Shown: in pieces, positions 1,789-41,614 of the stretch
Layout of the letters: each line of letters starts with the position of its first letter
How positions within the stretch are numbered: position 1 is the first letter of the stretch
Virus record (IMG/VR): IMGVR_UViG_2534681654_000010
DNA from: a virus
Lineage: Duplodnaviria; Heunggongvirae; Uroviricota; Caudoviricetes
Reading direction: 5' to 3' (one strand)
Length of the DNA: 43,779 nt
The notes under the pieces: model-generated
The model's database searches: none
The model's input: the letters and a program-made list of their open reading frames with translations, nothing else
Told to the model about the DNA's origin: nothing
Position numbers and translations under genes: made by a program

Positions 1789-2854
1789 ACCGGTAGGCGA
1801 TCTGGTCGTTGATTTAAGTCTGGATGCGGCCAGATTTGACGAGCAGATGGCCAGAGTCAGGCGTCATTTTTCCGGTACGGAAAGTGATGCGAAAAAAACA
1901 GCGGCAGTCGTTGAACAGTCGATGAGCCGGCAGGCGCTGGCTGCACAGAAAGCGGGAATTTCCGTCGGGCAGTATAAAGCCGCCATGCGTATGCTGCCTG
2001 CGCAGTTCACTGACGTGGCCACGCAGCTTGCAGGTGGGCAAAGTCCGTGGCTGATCCTGCTGCAACAGGGGGGGCAGGTGAAGGACTCCTTCGGCGGGAT
2101 GATCCCCATGTTCCGGGGGCTTGCCGGTGCGATCACCCTGCCGATGGTGGGGGCCACCTCGCTGGCGGTGGCGACCGGTGCGCTGGCGTATGCCTGGTAT
2201 CAGGGCAACTCAACCCTGTCCGATTTCAACAAAACGCTGGTCCTTTCCGGCAATCAGGCCGGGCTGACGGCAGATCGTATGCTGGTCCTGTCCAGAGCCG
2301 GGCAGGCGGCAGGGCTGACGTTTAACCAGACCAGCGAGTCACTCAGCGCACTGGTTAAGGCGGGGGTAAGCGGTGAGGCTCAGATTGCGTCCATCAGCCA
2401 GAGTGTGGCGCGTTTCTCCTCTGCATCAGGCGTGGAGGTGGACAAGGTCGCTGAAGCCTTCGGGAAGCTGACCACTGACCCGACGTCGGGGCTGACAGCG
2501 ATGGCGCGCCAGTTCCATAACGTGACGGCGGAGCAGATTGCGTATGTTGCTCAGTTGCAGCGTTCCGGCGAAGAAGCCGGGGCATTGCAGGCGGCGAACG
2601 AGGCCGCGACGAAAGGGTTTGATGACCAGACCCGCCGCCTGAAAGAGAACATGGGCACGCTGGAAACCTGGGCAGACAGGACAGCACGGGCATTCAAATC
2701 CATGTGGGATGCGGTGCTGGATATTGGTCGTCCTGATACCGCGCAGGAGATGCTGATTAAGGCAGAGGCCGCGTTTAAGAAAGCGGACGATATCTGGAAT
2801 CTGCGCAAGGATGATTATTTTGTTAACGATGAAGCGCGGGCGCGTTACTGGGAT
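1781..2854 (+). pseudogene. H: tape measure protein H, N-terminal fragment (codons 1-358), disrupted by insertion
   Basis: MAEPVGDLVVDLSLDAARFDEQ…DEARARYWD matches the lambda gpH N-terminus; after codon D (2852-2854) the frame reads 7 unrelated codons (IARRFF*) into the inserted element and stops at 2875. Confidence 0.9.
2850..2854. repeat. target-site duplication GGGAT, left copy
   Basis: GGGAT ends the H-homologous left flank; the identical pentamer begins the H-homologous right flank at 41610-41614. Joining the flanks with one copy restores …tac tgg gat gat cgt… (YWDDR). Confidence 0.8.
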
Positions 2855-2936
2855 ATAGCGCGGCGATTTTTTTGATACCGATTTGCATTTCATTTGATAC
2901 CGCTGAAAAACGCCGATACGCAACTTATTTGATACT
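2855..2936. repeat. element end (Mu right-end equivalent) with three TTTGATAC(C) transposase-binding-like repeats
   Basis: TTTGATAC at about 2871-2879, 2893-2901 and 2928-2936; reverse complements (GGTATCAAA) recur at the other end. Confidence 0.6.
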
Positions 2937-2981
2937 AAATCGGCGCTTTTCTTTTGAGTTTTAGAATGAGTTTTTAAGCGC

Positions 2982-3719
2982 TCATTCACTCTCTTTCAAA
3001 CCAGTTTTAACTGTTTGTGGTTTTGGGTAAGGCTGGACTTTGAATAGCTTTGTGTTGAGGCGTTTTCTGGCCCTCTTGTTCAGAAACCGGATGTAACGAA
3101 ACTGTCGGAACTTATGAACACTGGCTCTGTCAATATTAGCCCTCAGATGTTCACCTCGTTGTCCGCCTCGTTTAATGGCATTCCTGCAAATCTCGTGATA
3201 CCACTCGCCATCAAGTTCATAGAATATTGATTCATGGCTGCCTACATAATCAAAATTGCTTGCCTGATACACGACACCAAGACAGCCACAACGCTCATCT
3301 GCAAACGACTGAACCCACTGTACCTGCGGATAAAGCTGCCTGATTAGCTTGAGCGCGTAACTGATTGCCCTTGATTCGGAGTTTCTCGGCATACAGTCAT
3401 GCAGCCATAGCCGGTTAAGCTCCATATATTCTCGGTTCTGCGTACCCGTTACGACGCGTGCACCACTGTTTGGGTTAAGGGCGTAACCCCATTGCATTAC
3501 GCCAACAAGTTCCCGTTCTGAAAATATGCCCAGATGAAGGTAGGAGTTATTTACGAAACGGTGGCTGTAATGTTTATTGACGATGACCAGTCTGGCCAGC
3601 CAGCAACTTATTGTCTCAACCCGCAACTCACGGGAGCCATAACCAACGATATTGTCGTTATAGCGAATAAGTTCAGGCGTGCTGATGATTCGGGATGTGA
3701 CTTGCTTTCTGTTCCCCAC
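2982..3719 (-). CDS. mom: DNA modification protein Mom (adenine modification, anti-restriction)
   Basis: Product …[59 protein letters not shown]… matches my recollection of Mu Mom; last gene before the element end; 5' end overlaps com. Exact start codon uncertain. Confidence 0.8.
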
Positions 3720-3873
3720 GACAGGATTTCCTTGTGTATGTGGGGTGCTCTGTGGCGCTCGGAGATGTGATTTGATTGAGGGTTTTACAGCGCGGACATT
3801 TTACTTCCAGATAACTGAAACTGGCCCGTGCCAGTAGCTTATTGCAGTGTCGGCACCGTATGTTTCGATACAT
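3673..3873 (-). CDS. com: Com zinc-finger translational activator of mom
   Basis: [14 protein letters not shown]…CPRCK… has the CxxC…CxxC zinc ribbon and resembles Mu Com; AGGAGG RBS upstream of the ATG at 3873; 3' end overlaps mom. Confidence 0.75.
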
Positions 3874-3960
3874 GACCGCATAACCTCCTGCTTTGTTGTT
3901 GATGCCTTTCTCATGCAATCGATCGACAAAAACGATCGATTCGATTTGTTTAATTGATAC
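3874..3960 (-). promoter_or_regulatory. putative mom promoter/operator region with clustered Dam GATC sites
   Basis: GATC at about 3921-3924 and 3934-3937 (two more near 4044-4059) just upstream of com, followed by an AT-rich tract; Mu mom expression is Dam-methylation dependent. Confidence 0.4.
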
Positions 3961-4284
3961 AACAAATAGATTGAAAAGTCATCAACAATGATTCAGGGAG
4001 GTGATTATTTACTTAAAGAAAACGAAGAGTTAGGTGGTGAAAACGATCATAAAATGATCATTTTATTGACTTTTTATACAGTGAAGGTAGGATCACGCGT
4101 ATATGTAGTATGTTTCAAATCAACAGGATACTACATAAAAGTGAAACCCAGCATAGCTGGAACTATGCTGGGTCAATCTGTAAAAACTTGCATCAATGCT
4201 TTACTTCGAGCTCGTGGCGTATCCTATGATATTCCCCGGTCTCCTGTAAAGCAGAGATGCATAAAAAGGAGATCTTTATCATGG

Positions 4285-4452
4285 ATGAAAGAGCCTGTTT
4301 GCCCTGCCTGTAAGACTCCCTTACAGCTCATCTATCGCCGTTCTCGATCTCAAAATGGCAAGACATACAAACCCAAAAATGCTTCCTGTTTCAGGATGCT
4401 GATATGTCCTGCCTGTTCTCCCAGGAGGGAAAATACACAAAACGTGCATTAA
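4285..4452 (+). CDS. hypothetical small zinc-ribbon protein (CPAC…CPAC), speculative
   Basis: 55-codon frame MKEPVCPACKTPLQ…CFRMLICPACSPRR… with two CPxC motifs; AAAAAGGAGA lies upstream but is better spaced for a 10-codon ORF at 4281; AT-rich context. Confidence 0.3.
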   Translation: MKEPVCPACKTPLQLIYRRSRSQNGKTYKPKNASCFRMLICPACSPRRENTQNVH

Positions 4453-4490: not shown

Positions 4491-4736
4491 TTACATCATA
4501 GTACCGTCAGTTCCGGGCTGAACCGGCTCTGGTTGCTCTACGGGTTGAGGATCATTTTCCGTGCTGTTTTCAGCCGGAGAACGGCCAACCATTCGGGCCA
4601 GCACTTCATCAACATATGCGTCGATTTGTGCCTCAAAATCCTTGCGAACCTGCGCCTTCAGCACGCGGTTCACTTCTTCAGAATAAAGTGCCTGTTTGAC
4701 AAGCTCTTCAGTAACCGTGCCTTTAATCTCTGGCAT
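4491..4736 (-). CDS. hypothetical 81-aa acidic protein
   Basis: ATG preceded by AAAGGAGA RBS; no family recognised. Confidence 0.5.
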   Translation of the reverse strand: MPEIKGTVTEELVKQALYSEEVNRVLKAQVRKDFEAQIDAYVDEVLARMVGRSPAENSTENDPQPVEQPEPVQPGTDGTMM

Positions 4737-4771
4737 GAATATTCTCCTTTTGCAGGTATATTGCCCCGTTA

Positions 4772-4954
4772 TCAGAGCGGGGTCGGGTCGTTTGGGGATG
4801 ACGGTGCCTGTGCTGTTTTACTGAGTTTTTCAGCTGCCGCATCATCAATTTTACGGCGAATATAATTTCTGATGACCTTATAACCACCGCTCACCAGATA
4901 TAACGCACTGACCACAGCGCAGAAATAAAGCAGCATTGTATGAACGAATGTCAT
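4772..4954 (-). CDS. hypothetical 60-aa single-pass membrane protein
   Basis: ATG preceded by AAGGTAAGG RBS; hydrophobic N-terminal helix (MLLYFCAVVSALYLVSGG) then a charged tail. Confidence 0.5.
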   Translation of the reverse strand: MTFVHTMLLYFCAVVSALYLVSGGYKVIRNYIRRKIDDAAAEKLSKTAQAPSSPNDPTPL

Positions 4955-5100
4955 ATAACCTTACCTTTGATATTGACTACATAATTCGTTATCGGGTAAA
5001 AACATCGAAGCGACTGATAACCACTCCTTCGGGAGTATTTTTATTTTCCTTTATGGGTTAGGTAGCTCCCGCCAGCCATATCATGACCGGCGGGATTTTT

Positions 5101-7140
5101 TTATTCTGTTACCGCTTTTTTCACTTCCACCACAATGCTGTCAATCAGCACCGGGTAAGTTGCATTTTTTGTGATATCCGTTACGCGGAGTTTGTCCACC
5201 GGGAAAGTTCCTACTGGTGACTGCGTCAGGGTAAACGCGGCACCATCCTGACCATCAATAACCGGAATAACCTGAAGGCTGTTATTTCCTGCAAAACGGA
5301 AGGCCAGCGTATGCCATTCATTATCAAATGCACCAAAGGTTCCCAGTTTCTGGTTATTTGTTGCCACTTTTGCATTGTGGTACATCACATTCAGGTCTTT
5401 TGCGTCTGTCTGGATGTAGAACGATGCCAGCAGATTATTCCCTGCATCCCCTGTCAGGGTGACACCCTGCGGCAGAGAGGAAACCGGCCAGTAAAGCCCC
5501 ATGACATACTGGTTTGCCACCAGGTCGCCAGGTACTTTAAAACGACAACTGATTAAACCACCATTTTTCAGCAGTTCAGCACCAGTACCGGCATCATGAT
5601 CCAGATACCAGGATGATTTACCTGTTTCCTTGGTCAGTTTCATTGCCTTACCACCTGTGCCTCCTGCATCACTGATAATTTCAGCTTTACCGCCAGCCGG
5701 CTCCCAGCCCTGGGCTTTCAGATTTCCTTCTGACTCACTGACACGATAAGACAGCAGTGTTGTGGTTACTGCTTCAGTTTCTGAAGGTGACGGCACTGGT
5801 GCTTCAGTTTCAGAAGATGGAACATCGGCTTTTACTGTGGTTCGCCCCGCATGAGTCAGAACTGCCGTGGCCAGACGGTCGGAAATAATCCCACGACGTG
5901 CCCATGAACTGAAATGGCTGGCCCGGTCCGCAGATGTCCAGGTGGCGGCACTGTTACGCCACGTTGAGCCGTAATAACCAATGGATTCAATATCCGGGTC
6001 TTCTGCCGGATTGTTGGTGGGTACATTCGCGTCATTTTCATCTGTCATTAATGGAACGAAATGAATGTTTTTATCTGTTTTGTTTTTGTAGCCGCCATAG
6101 ATTGCCTGGTATGCCGGTTCATTTTTCTGTTTCCAGAAATACGTGGTATCGCCACAAATCCACGGAACGCCAGCAGCACTGCCACCGGTACACTGTTCCG
6201 CCTGTTCAGCCAGGTCTGCGCGGAATTTTTCCACCATCGCCAGAAACAGCGCGGAATGCTCCGTCGGCTTCGCATCAATATCAAACTCGCCCTGCATCCA
6301 CACCACAGCAAGCAGGCGGTTTTTCGGGTTCTTCGCCAGTGCCGCTTTTGTCCGGCTGATTAAGTCCTTATACAGCGGCTTATCCACACCCCAGCGGGCT
6401 GAGTCCTCTGAAGCACCCGTGCTGTCACTGTACGTGCCGTCAGCACCCGCCGTGAATGCAGAACCACCACGGCAGCAGGGAACCAGCAGAATCCCCGCAT
6501 CTGCCGGAATAAACGGCAGCAGTTTTTTGGCAATGTGAAGCCCCTGACCCACGGTGCCATATTGCCCTTTAGCCACATCCGCTTTCGGGTGATTTTTTCC
6601 ACTCATATCCTGCACATCATGCAGACAGTGGTCGGCCAGAATGATGTCGTTATACTGACAGGCTTTACCTCCCGGCGTGACTGTACTGCGACGGGCTAAC
6701 TGCATAATACGCGGTTCGGGGCGGTCATATGTCTCCGGCAGTGGCAGACCTTCACCGTAAGCCATACCGTTTGACTGACCAGCAAGAACCACCACGTAAT
6801 ACCAGGAAGGGGAGCTGGAAGCAGTTTCATTTCCTGACGGACGGGTATGTGTTTCAGCATTATCCCAGTCTGACGGTTCAGCAGTACCGGCAACATCAGC
6901 ACTTAACGGAATGACCGCACCAATACCCGCTCCGGTAATTTCCACACTCGGATCACCGGATACTGGCCTTACCCACAGGCAATCCCGTGTATTAAAACTG
7001 ATGAGACAGTCAGCAAATGTCATTCCTCCTTTTGTTTCGGCCGGAGGAAAGGGAGCCTCAAGAAATGCCGCTGTACCACCGGAAACTTTAACAGTAAAGT
7101 TTCCGGGCATTGATGATAGTTGAACCCATTTGGACGTCAT
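5101..7140 (-). CDS. SGNH/SASA-family esterase, NanS-p-like (putative sialate O-acetylesterase) with C-terminal lectin-like domain
   Basis: 679 aa; GQSN serine motif in YYVVVLAGQSNGMAYGEG and overall resemblance to prophage-encoded NanS-p esterases of E. coli; lies between gin and com-mom. Confidence 0.6.
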   Translation of the reverse strand: MTSKWVQLSSMPGNFTVKVSGGTAAFLEAPFPPAETKGGMTFADCLISFNTRDCLWVRPVSGDPSVEITGAGIGAVIPLSADVAGTAEPSDWDNAETHTRPSGNETASSSPSWYYVVVLAGQSNGMAYGEGLPLPETYDRPEPRIMQLARRSTVTPGGKACQYNDIILADHCLHDVQDMSGKNHPKADVAKGQYGTVGQGLHIAKKLLPFIPADAGILLVPCCRGGSAFTAGADGTYSDSTGASEDSARWGVDKPLYKDLISRTKAALAKNPKNRLLAVVWMQGEFDIDAKPTEHSALFLAMVEKFRADLAEQAEQCTGGSAAGVPWICGDTTYFWKQKNEPAYQAIYGGYKNKTDKNIHFVPLMTDENDANVPTNNPAEDPDIESIGYYGSTWRNSAATWTSADRASHFSSWARRGIISDRLATAVLTHAGRTTVKADVPSSETEAPVPSPSETEAVTTTLLSYRVSESEGNLKAQGWEPAGGKAEIISDAGGTGGKAMKLTKETGKSSWYLDHDAGTGAELLKNGGLISCRFKVPGDLVANQYVMGLYWPVSSLPQGVTLTGDAGNNLLASFYIQTDAKDLNVMYHNAKVATNNQKLGTFGAFDNEWHTLAFRFAGNNSLQVIPVIDGQDGAAFTLTQSPVGTFPVDKLRVTDITKNATYPVLIDSIVVEVKKAVTE

Positions 7141-7239: not shown

Positions 7240-7800
7240 TTATTTTTCCGAAACGCTCGCAGGATAATAACGATAAAGGGTTGAAAGGCCGATATCAAAA
7301 ATAAGTGCCACCTGTCTTCGACTGACACCCCCGGCCAGTAAACGCCCGACCTGCTCGTATTGTTCCTGCGTGAGACGACGGGGTCTGCCGCCGGTTCGTC
7401 CCCTTTCACGGGCAGCTGCAAGACCAGCCCGTGTCCGTTCGACAATTAATTCACGCTCCATTTCTGCCAGCGCACCCATTATGTGAAAAAAGAAGCGCCC
7501 CATGGGGGGTGACGTATCAATGTTGTCAGTAAGACTACGAAAATTTATCCCCTGTTGCTGTAATTCATCTGTCAGCGCAACAAGGTGGCGCATACTGCGC
7601 CCCAGCCTGTCCAGTTTCCAGACCATCAGTGTGTCACCGGGTTTTAGTTTCTTCAGTGCCCGCTTCAGTCCCGGCCGCTGTGTCGTTTTACCACTCATTT
7701 TATCTTCAAAAATCTGCTCACATCCTGCACATTCCAGCGCATTTCTTTGTAAACCTGTGTTCTGGTCATTTGTTGATACGCGTATATAGCCAATCAGCAT
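7240..7800 (-). CDS. gin: Gin-type serine recombinase (DNA invertase)
   Basis: MLIGYIRVSTNDQNTGLQRNALECAGCEQIFEDKMSG… is a typical Gin/Hin/Pin/Cin resolvase-family invertase with C-terminal HTH; adjacent to the invertible tail-fibre segment. Confidence 0.9.
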   Translation of the reverse strand: MLIGYIRVSTNDQNTGLQRNALECAGCEQIFEDKMSGKTTQRPGLKRALKKLKPGDTLMVWKLDRLGRSMRHLVALTDELQQQGINFRSLTDNIDTSPPMGRFFFHIMGALAEMERELIVERTRAGLAAARERGRTGGRPRRLTQEQYEQVGRLLAGGVSRRQVALIFDIGLSTLYRYYPASVSEK

Positions 7801-7854: not shown

Positions 7855-7880
7855 ATCCCTGAAACCTTCGGTTTACGGGA
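7855..7880. repeat. gix-like recombination site (gin-proximal), at the outer edge of a ~170-bp imperfect inverted repeat
   Basis: Reverse complement reads TCCCGTAAACCGAAGGTTTCAGGGAT, resembling Gin/Hin/Cin crossover sites; the half-site TCCCGTAAACC is shared with the site at 9231-9256. Inverted homology (~80%) extends from about 7873 to 8040. Confidence 0.55.
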
Positions 7881-8226
7881 TACTGTAAACAGGGCCGCGA
7901 ATGCCCTGCCATCGAACGGAGCGGCTGTTGCAGCGAATAAACTCGCCACTCCAAGAAATATTAATGGTGTCCCATTTGACGGAACGCAGGATATAAATAT
8001 TACATCGGGGATGACGCAGTCTGTGGCTGACTCACGTTATGTTCAAAGCATTCGAAGAGGTTCAAGGTCAACGATTGGAATGCAATATAATATTTTTGAG
8101 GTTCCTGACGGATGCGTACTTACAGGGCTTGATGTCGCTGGTGATGGTAATGCAACGGTAACCGCATATTATCGACCTGTTCAGTTTCTGATAGATGGTT
8201 CGTGGAAAACAGCTTCCAGCGCATAA
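7861..8226 (+). other. silent alternative tail-fibre C-terminal cassette (S'v), no start codon of its own in this orientation
   Basis: Frame open from 7777 to 8226; encodes …ALPSNGAAVAANKLATPRNINGVPFDGTQDINITSGMTQSVADSRYVQ… homologous to the C-terminal region of the expressed fibre gene on the opposite strand, then a different tip (…YYRPVQFLIDGSWKTASSA). Confidence 0.65.
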
Positions 8227-8827: not shown

Positions 8828-8861
8828 TTCAGAGGGTGCATTCAGCACCCTTTTCTGTGGT

Positions 8862-9773
8862 TTACACTGAACTTACCGTTCTCCAGGCATTATTAATATA
8901 AATCTGAACCGGGCGATAATAGACCCCACCGATATTGTCCGCAGACCGGGAGCCGGTTTCCTGCACGTTAATTCCGGAAAGCATACAACCGGAAGGTGCG
9001 CTGTAATTCCATGACATTTCATTGCCTCCGGGTGAATGATAGCTCTGTGCTCCAAGCTGAACATTCTGTACATACCGGCCATCTGCGGTTGACTGCGTCA
9101 TTCCTGACGTGATGTTGATATCCAGCGTTCCGTCAAAAGGAACACCATTAATATTTCTTGGGGTGGCGAGTCTGTTTGCTGCCACGGCGGTTCCACCCGA
9201 TGGCAGGGCATCAGCAGCCTTATTTACCGTTTCCCGTAAACCAACGTTATCGATAAAAGCGCCTTTATCCGGAATGTCTGCGCCGTTCTGCTCCCTGCGC
9301 AGGTAACGGTTATCACCTTCGCTTTTGCTGTAAACATCCAGATTATTACGGGCGGTTCCCGCATTCTCCAGGTCGGCAAGGTTCTGATCCTTCGCCAGAG
9401 CATTAACGTCACCGGGACCAAGACTGTTTTTTGTGGCAAGCGCCCCAAGACCAAGATAACCACGGGCAAGACGCTGGGCTTCCGCACCGGCATCAGCAAT
9501 TTCTTTCAGGTTGTTTTTCCGGGAAAAGGCATTCGCAGCGATAATGGCTTTAATGGACAGCGTAAGCTGGTTTAACTGCGCCTTATCCGGCTGAATACTG
9601 GCTTCAGCCAGAATATTCAGCAGTTCGGCCTGGAGAATATTCAGCCAGTCCTGACCAATCCAGCTGATACCTTTTTGTCCGTCACCTTCGGTAAACCAGG
9701 TGGTGGTATTACTCTGCGCCGGTGCCAGCGCAGGCATATTCGCCACGCCGGAATTATTATCAACATGGAACAT
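8862..9773 (-). CDS. S: tail fibre protein (constant N-terminus fused to the currently expressed variable C-terminus, Sv)
   Basis: Start MFHVDNNSGVANMPALAP… overlaps the stop of the upstream gene (TAATG); the C-terminal ~120 aa lie inside the invertible segment and end …GGVYYRPVQIYINNAWRTVSSV. Confidence 0.75.
   Translation of the reverse strand: MFHVDNNSGVANMPALAPAQSNTTTWFTEGDGQKGISWIGQDWLNILQAELLNILAEASIQPDKAQLNQLTLSIKAIIAANAFSRKNNLKEIADAGAEAQRLARGYLGLGALATKNSLGPGDVNALAKDQNLADLENAGTARNNLDVYSKSEGDNRYLRREQNGADIPDKGAFIDNVGLRETVNKAADALPSGGTAVAANRLATPRNINGVPFDGTLDINITSGMTQSTADGRYVQNVQLGAQSYHSPGGNEMSWNYSAPSGCMLSGINVQETGSRSADNIGGVYYRPVQIYINNAWRTVSSV
9231..9256. repeat. gix-like recombination site inside the tail-fibre gene
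   Basis: TTCCCGTAAACCAACGTTATCGATAA resembles Gin/Cin/Hin crossover sites; inverted ~170-bp homology with 7873-8040 runs inward from here (about 9065-9240). Confidence 0.55.
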
Positions 9774-10333
9774 TAAATATTCTCCTCTTCGTGACTGTTT
9801 GCATATACGTAAATAAACGTCTGCCATGCAGGCTTATAACGGTTCAGAATACATTCCAGCGCACCGCCTTCATAAATACGCAGCGGCGTGAGAATATCAT
9901 CCAGCACATTCATATTCCGGTAGCCGGTTTCACTGTTAATCGTGACAATACTGACCCACTGTGAATCCGGTGATGGCTGAATATCTATTTCATAACCAAA
10001 CTCTGCCGCAAACCGGATATAAAATTCACGGTTAAGAGAGGGTTTCATCCGGTATTTATTCCCGGCATAACGCTGACGCTCCTGAATGGTTGCGCCGGTC
10101 ATATCACATTCCGGTAACCCCAGATAACGCTCCCAGTCTTCCAGCAGCAGACGGGATGAATCAGGAAAACGTTCTGCCAGCATCTGGTTACCGGTCCAGG
10201 AAACACGCTCCGTGGAATGACTGAGGCCCAGGCACAAAGCCGCAAGAACGGATGACGGCCGCTTATCCCATGCCAGCCCGTCAGGCAGCAACTGCAACAG
10301 GGCGCGCTGATGCGGGGTCAGGGTTACAGCCAT
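9773..10333 (-). CDS. Mu gp48-like tail protein (DUF2313/YmfQ-like)
   Basis: 186-aa ORF between the baseplate J-like gene and the tail fibre; position and size match Mu gp48. Confidence 0.55.
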   Translation of the reverse strand: MAVTLTPHQRALLQLLPDGLAWDKRPSSVLAALCLGLSHSTERVSWTGNQMLAERFPDSSRLLLEDWERYLGLPECDMTGATIQERQRYAGNKYRMKPSLNREFYIRFAAEFGYEIDIQPSPDSQWVSIVTINSETGYRNMNVLDDILTPLRIYEGGALECILNRYKPAWQTFIYVYANSHEEENI

Positions 10334-11409
10334 GTGATTTCCCCCACGGTCAGCAACTCTGTATCTCCGGCCATCACGGACTTCAGCGGGCTGCGAACTT
10401 CAAAATCCTCCAGTCCTTTCACCCCTGCAACAGCCCGCCAGAATGATGAAGGCAATACAAGTCCACCCGGCCGCGATTCGTTATAAAGCAGGTCTGTTAA
10501 TGCCTGTTTTACGGCAGCCTGATTTTCCGGCGTTTTGGGTACAATCCTGATCTCAAACGCCACCGGCTTATTGGTCAGCTTAAACACGCTGATTGTCGGC
10601 CCAAGTGGCTGACCAACGGGCTGGCCCGTCGCCGGATCATCATGACTGCGGATATAATCCGCCACCCGCTTCACATCACCTTCTCCGGGGAAAATGTCAG
10701 GGTTATTATCCTGAACAAAAGTCACACCAACACTACCCGCCTCAGGCCATTCAGGCTTACACCATGCCCGCGTCACGCCCGGTACTTCCCGTGCCCAGCG
10801 TTCAAAATCATACTGTGTTCCCCCTGATGGCGGGTTCTGTACCCGGAATACCAGCCTGGACAGCAACTCCGGCACCGTTTCCACATCCGCACCACCGGTG
10901 AGTCCCGTGCCGGTGACCGTGGCTGTCTGGTTGATGCCCGCCTGTGGCGTGATAAAGGACAGGCGGGTTCCGGTCGGGGTATTTCCAGCGCGCCCCGCAC
11001 TTTCCGCCTCCACATTAACATTCAGTGTTCCGGCTTTTCCGGTCGCAGAGCCGGTGATGCGGTACACAACCCCATCGCTTCGCTGAAGGAGTACGCCTTC
11101 CGTGATCCCTGCATCCGTGGTCAGCATCAGTTGTACCGGTCCGTCAGCGCGGGAAGCCGGTTTACGGATGACACCCCAGAATGCGCAGTGTTTCAGGAGT
11201 TCGGCTTCATCAGCTTCTGTCGGAATTATCTGCCGGGAGATCCAGGCCAGATGTTCATGCTCCTGTGCTGACAGACCCGCCAGTGCATACGCAATGGCAT
11301 TCAGGGTGGTTTCATTCACGCCCGGCTGCGAACCGGGCAGGCGCTGGCTGATATCCTGTTGTGTCTGTGTGATCAGTTGCGCCAGTGGTAAGGGCTGATA
11401 AGGCATCAT
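10324..11409 (-). CDS. baseplate J-like protein (Mu gp47-like)
   Basis: 361 aa, overlapped with neighbours in a Mu-type baseplate module. Confidence 0.6.
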   Translation of the reverse strand: MMPYQPLPLAQLITQTQQDISQRLPGSQPGVNETTLNAIAYALAGLSAQEHEHLAWISRQIIPTEADEAELLKHCAFWGVIRKPASRADGPVQLMLTTDAGITEGVLLQRSDGVVYRITGSATGKAGTLNVNVEAESAGRAGNTPTGTRLSFITPQAGINQTATVTGTGLTGGADVETVPELLSRLVFRVQNPPSGGTQYDFERWAREVPGVTRAWCKPEWPEAGSVGVTFVQDNNPDIFPGEGDVKRVADYIRSHDDPATGQPVGQPLGPTISVFKLTNKPVAFEIRIVPKTPENQAAVKQALTDLLYNESRPGGLVLPSSFWRAVAGVKGLEDFEVRSPLKSVMAGDTELLTVGEITWL

Positions 11410-11843
11410 TCCCCCTTCATATCAGCATAAAAAATCATCGGATGTCTGCTTCCGTCCGGCAGGGTGATTTTCACGGAAAGCGAAAGGCGAGCATGCCCCA
11501 CACGCATGGCATGACATACCACGGATGTGGCAGCACCGCTTTTATGCAGCCACGCCAGCGCTTCATCAGCATAGGCCTGTGCACGGCTGACCACGGAGGA
11601 CAGCGTCTTTTCACGGCTTAACAGCCAGAGACGGGAGCCAACGGGGCGCTCCCGGAAACTGTCTCCCCACCATCCCCGACGGTCACGGGTGCCGTCAGGG
11701 ATTTCATCGGAATCCAGCGCCCGCCTGTCCGTAAACAGTGAAATAATGACCGCAGTCAGCAGGCTGTTATCCGTCAGAAGATCTGCGCCGTTCAGTTGCA
11801 GGGAACCGCAACCCTGATCCCAGACGACAGCAATATCAGCCAT
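11406..11843 (-). CDS. Mu gp46-like baseplate protein
   Basis: Start MADIAVVWDQGCGSLQLNGADLL… chosen at an internal ATG that overlaps the upstream stop; position matches Mu gp46. Confidence 0.55.
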   Translation of the reverse strand: MADIAVVWDQGCGSLQLNGADLLTDNSLLTAVIISLFTDRRALDSDEIPDGTRDRRGWWGDSFRERPVGSRLWLLSREKTLSSVVSRAQAYADEALAWLHKSGAATSVVCHAMRVGHARLSLSVKITLPDGSRHPMIFYADMKGE

Positions 11844-12450
11844 TCTCTGGTCCTCCCGTTTTGCTGCCTTCACCGTTATCGTGATGCACATGACCTGAAT
11901 AGGTGATCCCGGCAATAACCGCTTCGGACATCGTGAACGTCCCCTGTGATCTTCCGGTGCCGTCAATGGACACATTGCCTTTGACATGCAGGTTCTTATC
12001 CACTGTGACATTACCGGTAAAGTGAGCCTCCGGTGTATCCACCTGAACACCTTCATCGGCGTAAATCTCCAGCGTCTTACAGGTCACAATGATCCGGCCG
12101 TTCTTTGTCAGACGTATACGGTGCCCCTCATGGTGATACACGCCGGTATCTCCGGCGGTAAGTCCGGTCGGGCGACTGCGGCGGTCTTCCACCACAAGCA
12201 CCACGGCCTGATCCCGTTGTCCGCCAGCACAGGCCAGAAAAACTTCCGCACCAGGCAGGGGGACGCTGATTTGCCCGTACTGCTGGGGGCGTTCAACGTC
12301 ATCAAAGGTTTCACCATCCATACCGGTGATTTGCACATTCTGGATTTTCAGCGTGTCCGTTGTGCCGGTCAGTACACCACGCCCGAACAGCAGACGAACA
12401 CCCCGCATCACGGGGGCCAGAAGGCGGCTGATGACTTCGTCATTCATCAT
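11836..12450 (-). CDS. baseplate spike / assembly protein V-like (Mu gp45-like)
   Basis: 204-aa product with a gpV/VgrG-like fold signature (…GDTGVYHHEGHRIRLTKNGRIIV…). Confidence 0.6.
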   Translation of the reverse strand: MMNDEVISRLLAPVMRGVRLLFGRGVLTGTTDTLKIQNVQITGMDGETFDDVERPQQYGQISVPLPGAEVFLACAGGQRDQAVVLVVEDRRSRPTGLTAGDTGVYHHEGHRIRLTKNGRIIVTCKTLEIYADEGVQVDTPEAHFTGNVTVDKNLHVKGNVSIDGTGRSQGTFTMSEAVIAGITYSGHVHHDNGEGSKTGGPENG

Positions 12451-13564
12451 TGAATTTAATCCCCTGTTTTTTCATCTGTGCCCGCACGAAGGCGTCCACG
12501 TCACCCGCATTTCCGCTTCCGCTGTTTCCCGGCTCTGCCGGAACAATAAAGCCGTCACGGGGTGCCAGAATCAGACGGGTGGTTTCGCCGTGATTTGCAT
12601 CCAGCGAAAACTCCACCTGACAGACAAGAAGATCACGCTCTTCCACTCCGGTGCGGGGAGCCGTGACAGCCGTCAGCAGGTTGATATCCCACAACTGGCC
12701 GTTCTCCCGAAACCAGTGCCGCACGGTGGCTGTCAGGCGCACAGAGCGGGCAACCGCCCGGCGCATTTCCCGGACAGCCCTCTGGCGTGCACCGTCTGCA
12801 TCAACAGCATGATCCGCCAGCACAATTTTCGGTCTGTAACGGTGGATGGCACTGTCTGTCACCGTACCAACGGGTGCGGCCAGCGTTCCGGCTGTCAGTG
12901 CATCCCCGGCATGACCACCACCACGCCCGTGCCCCCGTACACGGTATTCACTGTGGCGCAGACGGTGATCCACGTTGTGATCCAAATCCAGCAGATTTTC
13001 GCCCAGCGTCAGCGTGTCGCCACGCTGACTGCCGGCCTGAGTGAAAACCAGTTCACCGGCGGCATTACTGGTTACCAGGACGCCTCTGTGTCTCGCGGCC
13101 CGTGTCAGCGCATCTGCCACGGTTTCTGAGTTTTCCAGTGTGAAGGTGGAAAAGGGCCGGGCTGCCGTTGCATCATTTACCTGCCAGCGCACCGTGACCC
13201 CGAACGGAGCACACAAATCTGAAGCAATGTGCTCCAGCGTGCGGTTCCTCCACTGGCTGCCCGGATGAATGGCTGAACAGTCCACCAGGTCACCGGTTTT
13301 ATCCCGTCCGCTGAGCGTGATCTGAAAACGCGTGGCGCTGATGCGCTGCCGGACCTGATCCAGCCAGCCAGTGATCACAGGCTGACCGTCAATGCGCAAT
13401 TCCAGAGACTGACCGGCACGGACGGATGACGGAAGGCGTACACCGGGCATCATTACCCCCAGTTCAAAGGAGCCCGCCAGATGTTCAAGAGAGCGACGAA
13501 CACTCACCGTCAGCCAGCCGGAAAAAATCTCACCGCCCAGATACAGTTCAACCCTGCTGCTCAC
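12440..13564 (-). CDS. baseplate hub protein (Mu gp44-like)
   Basis: 374 aa in the conserved position between the DNA circularization protein and the baseplate spike. Confidence 0.55.
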   Translation of the reverse strand: MSSRVELYLGGEIFSGWLTVSVRRSLEHLAGSFELGVMMPGVRLPSSVRAGQSLELRIDGQPVITGWLDQVRQRISATRFQITLSGRDKTGDLVDCSAIHPGSQWRNRTLEHIASDLCAPFGVTVRWQVNDATAARPFSTFTLENSETVADALTRAARHRGVLVTSNAAGELVFTQAGSQRGDTLTLGENLLDLDHNVDHRLRHSEYRVRGHGRGGGHAGDALTAGTLAAPVGTVTDSAIHRYRPKIVLADHAVDADGARQRAVREMRRAVARSVRLTATVRHWFRENGQLWDINLLTAVTAPRTGVEERDLLVCQVEFSLDANHGETTRLILAPRDGFIVPAEPGNSGSGNAGDVDAFVRAQMKKQGIKFNDE

Positions 13565-16959: not shown

Positions 16960-16961
16960 AC

Positions 16962-17942: not shown

Positions 17943-17950
17943 GCCTTACC

Positions 17951-21055: not shown

Positions 21056-21098
21056 ATTTGCCCTCCGCAGGGGCCGGGCCGTAAGCCCGGCTCACCGT

Positions 21099-23820: not shown

Positions 23821-23938
23821 GTTGCCTCCTTAAAACTATCTGATTAAAATAAATACAGGCCGGTGTACTCTTAACTGGTAAAGCGGCATAAACCCTCAGG
23901 GGTCATATGTTTATGCGGGTTCGACCCCCGTCACCGGC

Positions 23939-28501: not shown

Positions 28502-29082
28502 CAGGCTTTACCCAACAGAATCCCCTTAATACGGGACTCAAGCTGTTCACTCATCCCGTCCACGCCGCGCAGCTCGTCGGTGACCGCGTTTGCCATCTCT
28601 TCAGCAAATGCGGCCCGGATTTCTTTTTCACGCTTAATGCTGCGCTCGGCGGCACTTTCCGCACGCTGTGCTGACAGGAGGATGTCTTTGATGAGGCGCA
28701 TATCCACGTCGCTGTCGCTGTTCAGAGATTCGGTCGCGGCACGCAGGCGGCGGTACATCAGGGCGCGGGACATTTCCAGAATCAGCGCTGTGGTTTCACC
28801 GGTCGGCTTGTCCCCCAGTTCGGCCATCATGGCTTTTGTCTGCTCGCGTAAATCACGCAGGTTACGGGCAATCAGCTCATTACGGGAGGCTTCCCGGCTG
28901 ATGGCCGCCGGTGAAAGCTGCTGCTCTTCCGGCAGGCCCGCCTCACGGATCAGACGGTTGATTTCCTCACGGATCTGGACCTGCGTCAGACGTTTTTCAC
29001 GCAGCATTTCCAGCAGCGGCTTACGGATGCTGTCGGGGAGCAAATCCACCTTGCGTACACGACCACGCGTCGGCTTGTCCAT
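28501..29082 (-). CDS. terminase small subunit-like protein (Mu gp27-like)
   Basis: 193-aa charged protein translationally coupled to the large subunit. Confidence 0.55.
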   Translation of the reverse strand: MDKPTRGRVRKVDLLPDSIRKPLLEMLREKRLTQVQIREEINRLIREAGLPEEQQLSPAAISREASRNELIARNLRDLREQTKAMMAELGDKPTGETTALILEMSRALMYRRLRAATESLNSDSDVDMRLIKDILLSAQRAESAAERSIKREKEIRAAFAEEMANAVTDELRGVDGMSEQLESRIKGILLGKA

Positions 29083-29897: not shown

Positions 29898-30173
29898 TTA
29901 CTTCGTTTTTCCTGCCGGAACAGCAGGCGTTCCGGCCATATCAGTAAATTCATGTTGTCGCCGCGTCTCCAGACGACGAATACTGGCCTTGTCCACGTTG
30001 CAGTTCTTGATCACCGCCAGCAGTTGCAGGTTGTAAGTGACCGATGCCCCAAACGTGAACGGCTCCGGCGCAGGAGGGACCAGGCAGTCAGCCAGCCATT
30101 CAGCGGGGATCGGCACCGGCTTCACAGGCACGTATTTCACAGACGGCCCGGCGCACCCGATCAGCCACATCAT
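29898..30173 (-). CDS. o-spanin (Rz1-like outer-membrane lipoprotein)
   Basis: MMWLIGCAG… lipobox with Cys, Pro-rich; overlaps the 3' end of the i-spanin frame. Confidence 0.6.
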   Translation of the reverse strand: MMWLIGCAGPSVKYVPVKPVPIPAEWLADCLVPPAPEPFTFGASVTYNLQLLAVIKNCNVDKASIRRLETRRQHEFTDMAGTPAVPAGKTK

Positions 30174-30450
30174 CAGGAACAGGGGCAGAGGCCGCAGGCA
30201 CTGCTGCCAGCGACCGGCGGACAACGCTCTGCTGCCCCTCGCTGTGCTGAATGTTCTGTTGTTTTTCATTCGTGGCCGCCTCACTGATTTGTGAAATGAG
30301 TTGCAGGGTGTGCTGCTGATTTGCCAGCACCTGACGCGCCTCATCCCGCTCACGCACAAGCACCTGATTATTGTCTTCAAGGCGCTGCGTCTTCTGGTGC
30401 ATTCCCCATATAGCGGCAACCAGTACAGCGATAATCCCCAGCGCCGCCAT
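30100..30450 (-). CDS. i-spanin (Rz-like); start ambiguous (ATG at 30450 or 30600)
   Basis: N-terminal transmembrane helix (ALGIIAVLVAAIW) then a Gln/Arg-rich coiled-coil-like domain; downstream of endolysin with o-spanin overlapping its 3' end. Confidence 0.5.
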   Translation of the reverse strand: MAALGIIAVLVAAIWGMHQKTQRLEDNNQVLVRERDEARQVLANQQHTLQLISQISEAATNEKQQNIQHSEGQQSVVRRSLAAVPAASAPVPDDVADRVRRAVCEIRACEAGADPR

Positions 30451-30562
30451 GCACGCCCCGGCAATCAGGGCCGGTAAGGCATTATTCACCGCAGCCACAG
30501 GACACCCCGTAACAGCAGTACCGCACACAGCAGCGCTATCATGAGCGGTCGCCAGAAGCGGT

Positions 30563-31063
30563 TCAGACTTTCGGCAAGTCGTAGCGACATAACCATTCAT
30601 CCGCCGAACGGCGGGCCTCAAGGCCGGGGAGTTTCACCCCCTTTGAATAAATCCAGCGGATATACTGCTTACAGGACGCGGGCATCTGCCCGGCATTGAT
30701 CAGGCGCAGAAGCGTGGAGTTGCGAAAGTTCGTTTCACCGGCCCAGAAGATCCACGAAGCCAGCGCCACCGTCTGACCACGGGTAAGCGGCACCTGAACA
30801 CGCCGATCAATGGCCGCAAAGGCCCATTTCATGTCCTTTTCCAGTAGTTCCAGGCATTCTTCATCTGTCAGGGTCATACCCGGTTTCACATCCGGGCCGG
30901 TATGGCCGTAACAGATGGTGGGTGTACCGGTGGGATCGATATACGTGGAGTTTTCTTTCCCTTCCCAGTAACCGGTGTAATGCGTGGCAATCGTGAACGT
31001 CCCGGCACCGGCCAGAACAAGGGCAATCAGCTTTTTACGCAGTGGTGCGGGGAGTTTTGGCAT
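30563..31063 (-). CDS. lys: SAR endolysin (lysozyme-type)
   Basis: N-terminal signal-anchor-release-like helix (KKLIALVLAGAGTFTIA) followed by a lysozyme-like domain (YWEG…CYGHTG…NFRNSTLLRLIN…) resembling phage P21 R-type SAR endolysins. Confidence 0.8.
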   Translation of the reverse strand: MPKLPAPLRKKLIALVLAGAGTFTIATHYTGYWEGKENSTYIDPTGTPTICYGHTGPDVKPGMTLTDEECLELLEKDMKWAFAAIDRRVQVPLTRGQTVALASWIFWAGETNFRNSTLLRLINAGQMPASCKQYIRWIYSKGVKLPGLEARRSADEWLCRYDLPKV

Positions 31064-31134
31064 TGTTACGCTGTCTCATGATGTTCTCTGAGTCAGCGTA
31101 ACGGTGAAGGAGAGGCGGCAGGCTTTGCGGAATA

Positions 31135-31560
31135 TCAGAAAAGTGGCGGTTGCGTTCTTGCCAGATGCAGACGGCGCTGTTCGCGTATGACGGTATAAAT
31201 CTGGGTTTCTGACATCCGGTAATGGCGGCGAAGGGATTCAATTTTCTCGCCCCGGTCCCAGCGCGAAAATATCTCATTGTTTCGCAGCTCGGCAAAGAGA
31301 GATTCCCCGACCGGCAGGTAATAACCCCGTCCGCCCATATAGGCTGCCTGAGCCGCAGCCACCTTGCGTGCCAGTTTACCGGCCAGTACCGGCTCAATCC
31401 CCTGACGCTGAAGTTCTGCGCCGGTGACTTCAACCAGTTCTGACAGGGTCCGCGGCCAGTTCTTTTTGAGAACATCATCAGGGATGTCATCAAGGCGGTC
31501 GATAAGGGCGTGCAGTTGCTCACTGTCACCACCAAACATGCTCATCTGAGTTTCTGCCAT
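31135..31560 (-). CDS. Mor/C-family transcriptional activator (middle/late gene activator)
   Basis: 141 aa with the Mor/C-family pattern (…LIDRLDDIPDDVLKKNWPRT…IYTVIREQRRLH…); the only family member seen between gemA and lys. Confidence 0.7.
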   Translation of the reverse strand: MAETQMSMFGGDSEQLHALIDRLDDIPDDVLKKNWPRTLSELVEVTGAELQRQGIEPVLAGKLARKVAAAQAAYMGGRGYYLPVGESLFAELRNNEIFSRWDRGEKIESLRRHYRMSETQIYTVIREQRRLHLARTQPPLF

Positions 31561-35411: not shown

Positions 35412-35942
35412 TTATTTATTCAGTCCGGCGTCCTGTTCAAAAGGCTCGACATAAAAACTTTCAGCGCCTTTATTCACCTTAATACCGGCAATCCCTTTCA
35501 CCGCATCCGGCTCCGCCAGGACCGCTTCCTTGTTCACTTCCTCTTTCGTGCGGATAAAACGCTCAAGGCCCATACGGCGCAGCATTTCAATCACACCTTC
35601 CACATCACGACTGACGCTGCATGATGGATTCCCCAGTCGCCATGACACCGTTCCGGTGGTCAGATTGGCAGTTTTGGTTTTGCCGCCGTTCGTCAGCTCA
35701 TCACGGTTGGTTTTGCACCAGTCCTGAATCCCCTTAAAAAGCACTTTGATTTCTTTTTTAAGGTTTTCAATCTGCGGCGTATAACGGGCGGTGATTTCTG
35801 CCACTTCATCATTCATCGCTGTTTCCAGGCGCAGCGCCTCTCGCTGAATATCGCCCAGGGTGCGGATATCGCGGCTGACCTCTTCACGGGTCTGCGGTGC
35901 CGCCTCTGCTGCGGCCTTTAATTTTGTAACGCGTTTTGCCAT
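35412..35942 (-). CDS. gam: Gam host-nuclease inhibitor (Ku-like DNA end-binding protein)
   Basis: 176-aa product MAKRVTKLKAAAEAAPQTREEVSRDIRTLGDIQREALRLETAMNDEVAEITARY… resembles Mu Gam. Confidence 0.75.
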   Translation of the reverse strand: MAKRVTKLKAAAEAAPQTREEVSRDIRTLGDIQREALRLETAMNDEVAEITARYTPQIENLKKEIKVLFKGIQDWCKTNRDELTNGGKTKTANLTTGTVSWRLGNPSCSVSRDVEGVIEMLRRMGLERFIRTKEEVNKEAVLAEPDAVKGIAGIKVNKGAESFYVEPFEQDAGLNK

Positions 35943-37070: not shown

Positions 37071-37298
37071 TTAGCTGACTTGTTTCGCACCAACAGAACG
37101 GCATATTCCGCTGTAAACGTCTGTCGCACCTTCGCGATCAAGTCCGGCAGATATCACCATTCGTGTGCGGTCATTAAATTCAAAAAGTAAATCGCCACAT
37201 TCTTTATTTTCGGCCAGTGAAATCACCTTCACGTTATCGAAATTAACCAGGTAAAAGCGTCCGTAAATATCAGGAATATAAAATACCGCCATAATCAC
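37071..37298 (-). CDS. hypothetical early protein in the position of Mu kil
   Basis: 75-aa ORF immediately downstream of B; call by position only. Confidence 0.35.
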   Translation of the reverse strand: MIMAVFYIPDIYGRFYLVNFDNVKVISLAENKECGDLLFEFNDRTRMVISAGLDREGATDVYSGICRSVGAKQVS

Positions 37299-38227
37299 AC
37301 CTGTGAGAGTAATTCAGGGTTGGTATAAACCTCTTTAAAGGCCGCATTAATATGTTTTTCTGTCAGCGCCGCACCTTCACCGCTGGCGGTGAGCCACGCC
37401 TGGTTAAGCGTATGTGTCAGAACGCGTAACGCTCCCGGCTTTTCAGCGATAGCCTGCATGACGGCCAGCTCGGCCTCACCACTGATACCCCATGCCCTGG
37501 CAATGGCCAGCACATCCGCCTTTTTGGCCTTGCGAAGTTGTTTTGTACGGGCAAGACGGCTGAACAGGCGCGATAAATCATCAAAGGCGCGGCGTCCACC
37601 TTTAAACAATCCGCGCGGGTTACCAATAAGCACCATCCCGATCCCCGTGGCGTCCTGAATTGCCCGGAGTTGCTCCAGACCGTCAATACCAAGATGATCC
37701 GCCTCATCCACAATCACCAGTCCACGCGTTCCCATCAGGCGACGGCGGATGGCGCGGGATAATGCCCCTTTGTTCGCGCGGGTGTAATCAATCCCCAGCG
37801 CATCGGCCAGCTCCAGCAGACACTCCGTGACGCTGGAGTGCGCGGGTGACAGGGTGATCATCCAGGTGTTTGGTTGCTCCTGGCAGTAATTACGGGCGGT
37901 GGCCGTTTTACCTACCCCCGGCACGCCCACAATGACGTTAATACAGCCCATCAGGCGAACCGCCTGAAACAGTGCGCGCAGCTCCTGAACTGTCTGCGTT
38001 TCCACAAACTGCGGCGGTTCCGGCAGTGCGCTTTGTTTATTCCAGTTCTCATACCAGGAACGCAGGGAAGCAGCCACAGCGGCGTTATCGCCTTTATATT
38101 TCCCCTTGCGGAAAGCCGATAATGTGCCGTCGGAAATTCCCGCCTCTCTGGCGATGGCATACTGCGTCAGTACGCCGCCATCAATAAGTTCATCAATGGT
38201 CTTGATTACATCGTTAATATCAGTCAT
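37295..38227 (-). CDS. B: MuB-like AAA+ ATPase (transposition target DNA activator)
   Basis: 310 aa with N-terminal HTH and Walker A GVPGVGKT; directly downstream of the transposase. Confidence 0.85.
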   Translation of the reverse strand: MTDINDVIKTIDELIDGGVLTQYAIAREAGISDGTLSAFRKGKYKGDNAAVAASLRSWYENWNKQSALPEPPQFVETQTVQELRALFQAVRLMGCINVIVGVPGVGKTATARNYCQEQPNTWMITLSPAHSSVTECLLELADALGIDYTRANKGALSRAIRRRLMGTRGLVIVDEADHLGIDGLEQLRAIQDATGIGMVLIGNPRGLFKGGRRAFDDLSRLFSRLARTKQLRKAKKADVLAIARAWGISGEAELAVMQAIAEKPGALRVLTHTLNQAWLTASGEGAALTEKHINAAFKEVYTNPELLSQV

Positions 38228-40388: not shown

Positions 40389-40389
40389 A

Positions 40390-40638
40390 TCATGACGCCT
40401 TTCTCATATAGCTCTTAACCTGGTATCTACTGGGCCAGATTTCTTCAGGCGATACCCCAAGAGCATCAGCAATTATTTGCTGATACGGTCGGCAAGGAGT
40501 ACGTAATACGCTTTTCAGCGAATCCCTGCTGTAACCAGCCTTTAAAGATAAAGAGCGCAGTGATAAGCCAGCCATGTGTAAGCGCGCCTTGATGATTTCA
40601 GGCGGCCAATCGTGATCTGAAACTTCTCTTCTACTCAT
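40390..40638 (-). CDS. ner: Ner-like DNA-binding regulator
   Basis: 82 aa with …SLSLKAGYSRDSLKSVL…QQIIADALGVSPEEIWPSRYQ… resembling Mu Ner; upstream of A and divergent from the repressor gene. Confidence 0.75.
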   Translation of the reverse strand: MSRREVSDHDWPPEIIKARLHMAGLSLRSLSLKAGYSRDSLKSVLRTPCRPYQQIIADALGVSPEEIWPSRYQVKSYMRKAS

Positions 40639-40828
40639 ACTTCCTCTATTCTAAAAAGTTACCCGCGCGGATATTCGTGCGGATATCTGCACGGGTAAAT
40701 AATGCATCACCAAAAATACCAAATCAAGGTATTTTTGGTATTTTGGCTAATTTTTGCTTTTATCCTTATTTTTCAATTGGATAAATAGAAAGAAACCTTT
40801 CCTTAGAAAAGCACCAAGAGGTATCTTT
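40639..40828. promoter_or_regulatory. divergent early/repressor promoter-operator region
   Basis: Intergenic region between ner and the repressor gene; 7-bp inverted arms TTACCCG/CGGGTAA enclose a duplicated GCGGATAT (about 40659-40698); perfect 11-bp inverted repeat CCAAAAATACC/GGTATTTTTGG (about 40710-40738). Confidence 0.5.
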
Positions 40829-41359
40829 ATGTCGCAGGGAAAAGAACCTGTTATTGAACGTATTGGAATGCTTACAAAGCGCTACCCTTCAAGAAGTGCA
40901 GCTGCCAGAGCGTGGGGAATCAATATCAACACATTAAACAGCTATTTCAAGGGAGGACAAACACAACCAGCCCCCAGAGAAAGTATCCTTATACGAATTT
41001 CTGAAAGTGAAGGAGTTAGTCTTGAGTGGCTTAAAGAGGGCAAGGGTGAATCACCAAACGATGTTGGTATTTGTGGTAATTTTGGTTGTTCTGGTGATAA
41101 GGGAGATCAACTTACACAGATGCTTTCATTCCTTACGAAAGACGAACGAGAACAGTTAACCAATCTCCTTGCTCGCAAAGGTGTAGAGACGGTTCTGACA
41201 CTGCTGGATAAAGAAAACCAGGATTTATTACAACTAGAAGGCAGGAAGCGCCTGGCTGCGTTGATGATTGTAGATATGCCAGACGATTGCGTCAGAGAGA
41301 TTTTGGAAAAAACCGAGACAAGTAGGCAATCAAATCCGGTAGAATCTAAAGCGGGTTAG
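40829..41359 (+). CDS. c: putative prophage repressor (Mu c-like position)
   Basis: ATG with AAGAGG RBS; N-terminal HTH-like segment; divergent from ner and transcribed toward the element end as in Mu. Confidence 0.55.
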   Translation: MSQGKEPVIERIGMLTKRYPSRSAAARAWGININTLNSYFKGGQTQPAPRESILIRISESEGVSLEWLKEGKGESPNDVGICGNFGCSGDKGDQLTQMLSFLTKDEREQLTNLLARKGVETVLTLLDKENQDLLQLEGRKRLAALMIVDMPDDCVREILEKTETSRQSNPVESKAG

Positions 41360-41437
41360 TTTGGCGAGGCTGGCCCGTATGTTAGTTGCCATATAGATTT
41401 AATGAAGTTTTAAACGCTTTAAAAAGTTGAGATCGCA

Positions 41438-41609
41438 GTATCAAAAGTTTTGCCGATTTTAGAATAAACGATTAATTATTGCACAATCGGTATCAAATAG
41501 ACTTTAAGCGCTCATCCAGACATCACCTGTTTTATTTCAGTATCTTACAGGTGATTTCACCTCCTTTCACTAAAACCCTCGTTGGTATCAAATGATTCAC
41601 CTGGTTACA
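41438..41609. repeat. element end (Mu left-end equivalent) with GTATCAAA transposase-binding-like repeats
   Basis: GTATCAAA at about 41438-41446, 41489-41497 and 41584-41592; element terminates …GGTTACA at 41609 (terminal CA). Confidence 0.6.
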
Positions 41610-41614
41610 GGGAT
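41610..41614. repeat. target-site duplication GGGAT, right copy
   Basis: Identical to 2850-2854; followed by H-homologous sequence gat cgt gaa aag…. Confidence 0.8.

Follow-up and report, generated by a model that had tools for sequence, protein, structure and literature searches.

The 43,779-nucleotide (nt) stretch of DNA considered here, hereafter the window (IMG/VR virus record IMGVR_UViG_2534681654_000010), is the entire 43.8-kb scaffold JH959753.1 of the draft assembly GCA_000303895.2. Tail genes of a lambda-like prophage stand at both of its ends, and the two halves of one of them, gene H, lie more than 38 kb apart. How did the halves come to be separated, what separates them, and what would the separation mean for each of the phages involved? 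Our answer, which we hold with strong confidence, is that a transposable Mu-like phage of the Sp18 lineage inserted by transposition into gene H of a lambda-like prophage already resident in the cell.

Gene H is interrupted by a single insert

The H reading frame opens at 1781, and its last native codons, GCG CGT TAC TGG GAT (...EARARYWD), end at 2854, where they are followed by six foreign codons (IARRFF) and a TGA stop at 2873-2875. At 41615, the frame picks up again with GAT CGT GAA AAG, which reads DREKARLALEAA. Direct reading of the frame bears out where the initial annotation, made from the DNA letters without database searches, had placed the end and the resumption of the match to H. 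Its count of 358 native residues also stands, while the seven junk codons that it added to them are six residues with the stop counted as a seventh.

If the flanks are joined by removing 2854-41609 and one copy of the target duplication, a gpH of 849 amino acids is restored that is open throughout. The joined flanks give one colinear blastn high-scoring segment pair with phage lambda (lambda 8838-13792, 96.1% identity over 4,962 aligned columns), which takes in V, G, T, H, and M as well as the beginning of L, with the synteny V-G-T-H-M-L kept. This is the single colinear match that had been anticipated for such a search, and the two H fragments are contiguous in it. The empty site in lambda reads GTTACTGGGATGATCG and contains GGGA once. 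Pfam assigns lambda tail families to each of the flank genes independently of the lambda alignment. The interruption of H is confirmed, far beyond what chance would produce.

The insert is a copy of prophage Sp18

Compared with Sp18 of Escherichia coli O157:H7 Sakai (NC_002695.2, 5040970-5079724), the insert shows 99.987% identity over 38,757 aligned positions, with 4 mismatches and 1 gap, and 3 of the 4 substitutions are nonsynonymous. All 56 of the Sakai Sp18 coding sequences are present in the window at full length, without a frameshift or stop, which upholds the earlier impression that the Mu-like element is apparently intact. Its genes lie on the minus strand of the window, with the mom/attR end at 2854 and the repressor/attL end at 41609. 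The two copies have in common the 56 genes, the termini, an invertible tail-fibre segment, and an esterase cassette, and they differ in where they sit, since Sakai Sp18 occupies sorM and the window copy occupies H of a lambdoid prophage. Pfam and PHROG scans of the window proteins agree with the initial annotation that the insert is a Mu-like transposable prophage with a full Mu-type gene set, and by sequence and gene content we assign it to the Sp18 lineage.

Element ends and a 4-bp target duplication

Phage Mu makes a 5-bp target duplication and has 5'-TG...CA-3' termini. The copies of GGGAT at 2850-2854 and 41610-41614 had been read as a duplication of this size; both copies are there, but what the insertion duplicated is the 4-bp GGGA. 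In the eight insertions that we compared, the element begins, in the orientation of the window, with T-ATAGCGCGG... and finishes with ...CCTGGTTACA; one variant (L005) ends in ...GGTTATA. Read in phage orientation, the termini are 5'-TG...TA-3', with TG at attL and TA at attR, and TA stands at both ends in L005. The conserved termini TGTAACC...GCGCTATA and a 4-bp duplication occur together at unrelated sites in 8 of 8 insertions, and the flanking direct repeat is perfect in each: GGGA in H of the lambda-like prophage in the window, TTTA in sorM (Sakai), TAAT in dcuC (L002), TGAT in an aminopeptidase gene, ATCG in an APC permease gene, TGCG in flgL (L005), AGGT in gene J of a lambdoid prophage, and GATG in an Stx2c phage.

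The would-be fifth base of the repeat is an invariant T on the element side and, in the same order of insertions, T, A, G, A, T, G, T, and A on the opposite side, so that the two sides match in only 3 of 8. A 5-bp duplication is rejected on this ground. An empty site leaves a 4-bp duplication and a mutated 5-bp duplication undecidable, and the invariance of T is therefore the discriminating evidence. Since the element takes in the T at 2854, it comprises 2854-41609 (38,756 bp), which leaves GGGA as the duplication. The match at the fifth base of GGGAT is a coincidence in which the next target base happens to be T, and the argument from the Mu-family duplication size works only by this coincidence, in a lineage that makes 4 bp.

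Other evidence on the boundary concurs. Only when numbering begins with the T at 2854 do the two ends fall into register, and both then have TTTGATACC at positions 18-26. In a spread sample of 60 rows from the 283 places at which 232 E. coli genomes hold the attR end, the alignment starts at or outside this T in each match listed. The feature table of GenBank LC727881.1 has 4-bp repeat_regions, described as "duplication due to insertion of Mu", at the same boundaries; our literature search found no statement on the duplication size of Sp18, and this feature table was the sole explicit record found. A 3-bp duplication with the element ending at 2853, which the first megablast listing had suggested, was rejected because the modal start in the spread sample is 2854 and the earlier starts fit chance extension. 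Sp18-type elements are best delimited by their own termini and the 4-bp duplication and not by the 5-bp rule of Mu.

Three TTTGATAC repeats, oriented inward, occur at each end; those of attL lie 18, 113, and 165 nt from the terminus and those of attR 18, 40, and 75 nt, so that attL has one terminal and two distal repeats while all three are clustered at attR. This layout is the L1/L2/L3 and R1/R2/R3 pattern of Mu, and the repeats are putative transposase-binding sites. A passage of the KS10 paper, citing earlier work, credits six sites to Sp18.

The attL end together with the duplication, GTTACAGGGAT (41603-41614), is similar to the left flank of the target, GTTACTGGGAT (2843-2854), and as a result of this likeness the blastn alignment with lambda ran 6 bases into the element. 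Nothing similar is seen at the other insertions, and the likeness is probably coincidental.

If a phage of the Sp18 lineage had reached this prophage, whether upon infection or by intracellular transposition, transposase-mediated strand transfer at codon 358 of H with a 4-bp staggered cut of the target would leave GGGA on both sides of the element. The target carries no other rearrangement, and the element termini abut both H halves directly. Could the arrangement instead have been made in the assembly or scaffolding, with a Mu-like prophage located elsewhere and repeated lambdoid tail sequence misattached at both of its ends? In favour of this, the window is a whole draft scaffold that ends within lambdoid tail genes, and lambdoid H sequences recur in most EHEC (enterohaemorrhagic E. 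coli) genomes, the H part being matched in 3,640 of 5,426 complete E. coli genomes, at up to 6 places per genome. A chimera would not be expected, however, to put exact conserved termini at two adjacent positions of one gene; the 4-bp duplication of the lineage is present as at the seven other sites, and H, once restored, has a perfectly open reading frame. We regard an artefact as hardly credible and continue with transposition into H.

Predicted activity of the inserted phage

Sp18 of Sakai is predicted to be intact, and it is efficiently packaged, not circularised, not inducible by mitomycin C, and spontaneously released (PMC2669165). Particles thus contain the DNA of an essentially identical copy, and the insert in the window is probably still active as a transposable phage. 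The lack of induction by mitomycin C makes that treatment, which had been proposed as a way of seeing which phage is released, uninformative on the insert, and it is the wrong assay for Sp18-type elements in general.

If, on the other hand, the insertion were real and the Mu-like copy dead, then both of the nested phages would be remnants and none would be released. The three nonsynonymous differences from Sakai Sp18, among them D196V in the head-morphogenesis protein, and the terminus that reads TA instead of the canonical CA could be taken in this sense. But the TA end is common to all Sp18-like copies examined, including the packaged Sakai Sp18, and L005 has TA at both ends and yet occupies a new site with a clean duplication. 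The 56 coding sequences without a frameshift or stop also speak against a dead copy, which we consider unlikely. As for T98P in the invertase and the 1-bp crossover insertion, their effect should at most be a lock of the tail-fibre segment.

Predicted consequences for the lambda-like prophage

In the lambda-like prophage, gpH is cut at residue 358 of 849, and 38.8 kb of oppositely oriented genes now separate the late promoter from M, L, and the tail genes downstream of them; for these reasons, we infer that the prophage would be unable to make its own tails. Lambda packages roughly 78-105% of 48.5 kb, and a lambdoid prophage enlarged by 38.8 kb is expected to be too large for a lambda-sized head. 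A transposable phage would then have disabled a lambdoid prophage resident in a pathogenic E. coli strain, and events of this kind alter which prophages, Shiga toxin (Stx) phages included, form particles. Composite regions of this type would measure about 90 kb, and prophage finders will call them as one oversized phage.

Three considerations weigh on the other side. The draft scaffold displays just a few kb of the lambdoid prophage, 2.9 kb on one side of the insert and 2.2 kb on the other, and its junctions are known from the assembly alone. EHEC strains have several lambdoid prophages that complement the defects of one another (PMC2669165), so the initial annotation of the host prophage as tail-defective holds for its own genes but not necessarily for particles. 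The copy in the window also carries D196V, A118V, and T98P, as well as the 1-bp crossover insertion.

Precedents and distribution

Nested insertions of this kind have precedents. Nakamura and colleagues (2023) reported 10 Sp18-like phages in 13 closed CC119 genomes, 6 of the 10 in mobile elements, with several Stx phages hit (PMC10132054). The GenBank records LC727881.1 and LC727895.1 are Stx phages with an annotated inserted Mu-like phage, and in the complete genome of O157:H7 strain Show KS 470-1 an Sp18-like phage sits in a lambdoid J gene. The nested Sp18-like phages of Shiga toxin-producing E. coli have transposases 99.1-99.4% identical to that of the window copy and the same termini and 4-bp duplication, and they differ from it in the target gene and in the host prophage. 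Insertion sites of Sp18 are strain-specific (PMC7430833). The H::Sp18 junction was found in none of the 5,426 complete E. coli genomes at a coverage of at least 80%, and the exact truncated gpH protein was found only in the source assembly. The perfect duplication, the otherwise undamaged H, the five differences from Sakai Sp18, and the absence of the junction from these genomes together suggest that the insertion is recent. The finding is a strain-specific new instance of a known and fairly common type of event in Shiga toxin-producing E. coli, and nested insertions could be useful as strain markers.

The prominence of phage genes among the targets raises the possibility that Sp18-type phages are directed at resident lambdoid prophages above chance, disabling competitors, with H as a targeted hit. 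If so, the nested insertion would be a case of phage-against-phage interference and not a neutral accident. The share of the CC119 phages found in mobile elements is in keeping with this idea, as is the spread sample of E. coli genomes, in which, among insertions whose neighbouring gene is named, about one in four is in a phage gene; the neighbours named in the matches include the tail genes J, TipJ, L, and tail-fibre as well as portal, HK97 gp10, and lysis genes. Most insertions, however, are in ordinary chromosomal genes, and the eight tetranucleotides given above have no common motif. Prophages and other mobile elements also account for much of an EHEC genome, at 16% in Sakai (PMC2669165), and insertions there are those least purged by selection, so that enrichment would arise even if nothing were targeted. 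Relaxed selection against hits in prophage DNA explains the enrichment equally well, and we give targeting little credence.

Gene content of the window

The features of the window are collected in Table 1. The coordinates of the contractile-tail module were mapped from Sakai and the RefSeq annotation, and Pfam TMP_3 supports the tape measure.

Table 1. Features of the window and differences of the insert from Sakai Sp18, in order of position
Feature	Position	Strand	Evidence or remark
Major tail tube gene V, lambda-type	164-934	+	Pfam Phage_TTP_12 and Big_2; 96.9% nt identity to lambda V
Tail assembly chaperones G (950-1372) and T (1354-1788)	950-1788	+	Pfam Phage_TAC_2, Phage_tail_T; colinear with lambda
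H 5' fragment	1781-2875	+	358 native codons to 2854, 6 insert codons, stop; Pfam TMP_2, translation
Left copy of target duplication GGGA	2850-2853		4-bp repeat in 8/8 independent insertions
Sp18-type transposable (Mu-like) prophage, 38,756 bp	2854-41609	-	99.987% to Sakai Sp18; 56 coding sequences full length
attR terminus, 5'-TATAGCGCGG... read inward	2854-2935		Three TTTGATAC repeats at 2871-2878, 2893-2900, 2928-2935
mom (2982-3719) and com (3673-3873)	2982-3873	-	Pfam Mom, E 4e-77; Zn_ribbon_Com
Open reading frame, 154 amino acids, function unknown	3988-4452	+	phrog_26524
Accessory cassette: DUF826 (4491-4736), DUF1378 (4772-4954), 679-amino-acid SASA esterase/DUF6645 (5101-7140)	4491-7140	-	Pfam
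Serine DNA invertase (Gin/Hin type), T98P relative to Sakai	7240-7800	-	Pfam Resolvase and HTH_7
Difference from Sakai, DNA invertase	7509		T98P
Invertible tail-fibre segment	7861-9251		185-nt inverted repeats 7861-8045 and 9067-9251
Difference from Sakai, non-coding inversion crossover site	7869		One extra G (window - strand; C on + strand)
Contractile-tail module: fibre, baseplate, DNA circulation, tape measure (14884-16959), tube, sheath (17951-19453)	8862-19453	-	Mapped from Sakai and RefSeq
Difference from Sakai, DNA circulation protein	14451		Silent
Head/packaging module	19450-29082	-	Pfam Mu-like_gpT, Portal_Mu; PHROG terminase large subunit
Major head gpT	21099-22046	-	
Protease	22046-23170	-	
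Head morphogenesis F	23939-25264	-	
Difference from Sakai, head-morphogenesis protein	24678		D196V
Portal	25248-26837	-	
Large terminase	26837-28501	-	
Lysis genes (endopeptidase, lysozyme) and late activator Mor (31135-31560)	30100-31560	-	Pfam Mor; annotation mapping
Difference from Sakai, ECs_4954 homologue (early protein)	34416		A118V
Gam host-nuclease inhibitor	35412-35942	-	Pfam Phage_Mu_Gam, E 1.5e-41
MuB-type AAA+ transposition protein B	37295-38227	-	Pfam Phage-MuB_C and AAA_22; 48% identity to MuB
Transposase A, 696 amino acids	38298-40388	-	Pfam Mu-transpos_C, HTH_Tnp_Mu_1; phrog_310 transposase
Ner-like regulator (40390-40638, -) and divergent repressor (40829-41359, +)	40390-41359		Pfam HTH_35; PHROG transcriptional repressor
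attL terminus, ...CCTGGTTACA	41438-41609		Three TTTGATAC repeats at 41585-41592, 41490-41497, 41438-41445
Right copy of target duplication GGGA	41610-41613		Junction reading
H 3' fragment, 491 codons	41615-43090	+	Pfam Tape_meas_lam_C; in frame with 5' fragment after insert removal
Lambda-type M (43087-43416) and start of L, cut short by the scaffold end	43087-43779	+	Pfam Phage_min_tail; colinear with lambda M, L

In the host prophage, window positions 1-76 have no alignment to lambda or the other listed lambda-like phages, while alignment continues throughout from 77 on; the first 76 positions appear to mark a mosaic boundary upstream of V. In the insert, the 154-amino-acid open reading frame lies between com and DUF826 on the strand opposite to its neighbours, is without a Pfam or PADLOC match, and could be a moron. 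No defence system was matched when accessory and early genes were scanned with PADLOC.

Scans of the window for tRNAs with ARAGORN and for Rfam families found nothing. The RefSeq annotation (PGAP) has a "tRNA-OTHER" in L002 (21331-21411) and in L005 (21082-21161), placed in both between the virion-morphogenesis and head-morphogenesis genes and equivalent to about 23,850 in the window; a tRNA at the equivalent place in the window is unsupported by ARAGORN and Rfam and was rejected.

Of the five differences that set the insert apart from Sakai Sp18, two fall in the tail-fibre inversion system. T98P lies just before the conserved PMG motif of the invertase, and the extra base at 7869 is at the centre of a hix/gix-like crossover site. 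This site, which adjoins the invertase, reads TCCCTGAAACC-TTC-GGTTTACGGGA in the window and has -TT- in Sakai; the same +1 variant is also present in strain FRIK2533 (L002). The invertase substitution and the extra crossover base may together lock the tail-fibre segment.

The accessory cassette sits between the invertase and com/mom. A portion of its esterase gene (query 1213-2907, about 5110-6810 in the window) has 78-81% nt identity to genes of about 300 Stx-converting phages, in which the relatives are annotated as 9-O-acetyl-N-acetylneuraminic acid deacetylase. This similarity looks as if genes had passed between the pools of Mu-like and lambdoid phages.

Relation to phage Mu

How far the element is Mu-like depends on which of its parts is considered. 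Transposase A and the AAA+ activator B adjoin the repressor/Ner switch at one end of the element, as identified by Pfam and PHROG, and with this layout and inward repeats at both ends the element appears to be a transposable (Mu-like) phage in the broad sense. Such a phage would replicate by transposition and have virions with variable host DNA at the ends; the published signs of this for Sp18 are indirect, namely packaging, the lack of circularisation, and sites that vary from strain to strain (PMC2669165, PMC7430833). Transposase A itself is only 22% identical to MuA (E 5e-11). Pfam DDE_2 (PF02914) has no match in it even at E<=1, while MuA itself scores 2e-136, and rve, the retroviral-integrase-type core, is matched weakly and below threshold. 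Its best sequence matches in the PDB (E<=0.01) are Rous sarcoma virus integrase cores, with no MuA chains among them. By transposase, the nearest sequenced phages are Yersinia vB_YpM_5 and vB_YpM_6 (79%), Klebsiella Kp4866-3 (56%), and Haemophilus SuMu (43%). The transposition module joins a Mu-like B with this distantly related A.

The label "Mu-like" that the insert was first given therefore fits its organisation and most of its genes, but neither its transposase, in view of the distant A, nor one of its termini, which reads TA instead of CA. The sequence indicates an element that works like Mu and belongs to the Sp18 lineage, and it lacks three features that define Mu proper, namely a DDE_2 core, a duplication of 5 bp, and a CA terminus. 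Like Mu (Muvirus mu, NC_000929), it has the order repressor-ner-A-B...gam...mor-lysis-head-tail-invertible fibre segment-gin-com-mom, the Pfam families Mu Gam, Mor, Mom, Portal_Mu, and gpT, a B protein 48% identical to MuB, three plus three terminal repeats, and many unrelated insertion sites with a short duplication. Unlike Mu, it has an A that lacks DDE_2, duplicates 4 bp of its target, ends in TG...TA, and carries a sialate-esterase cassette in common with Stx phages.

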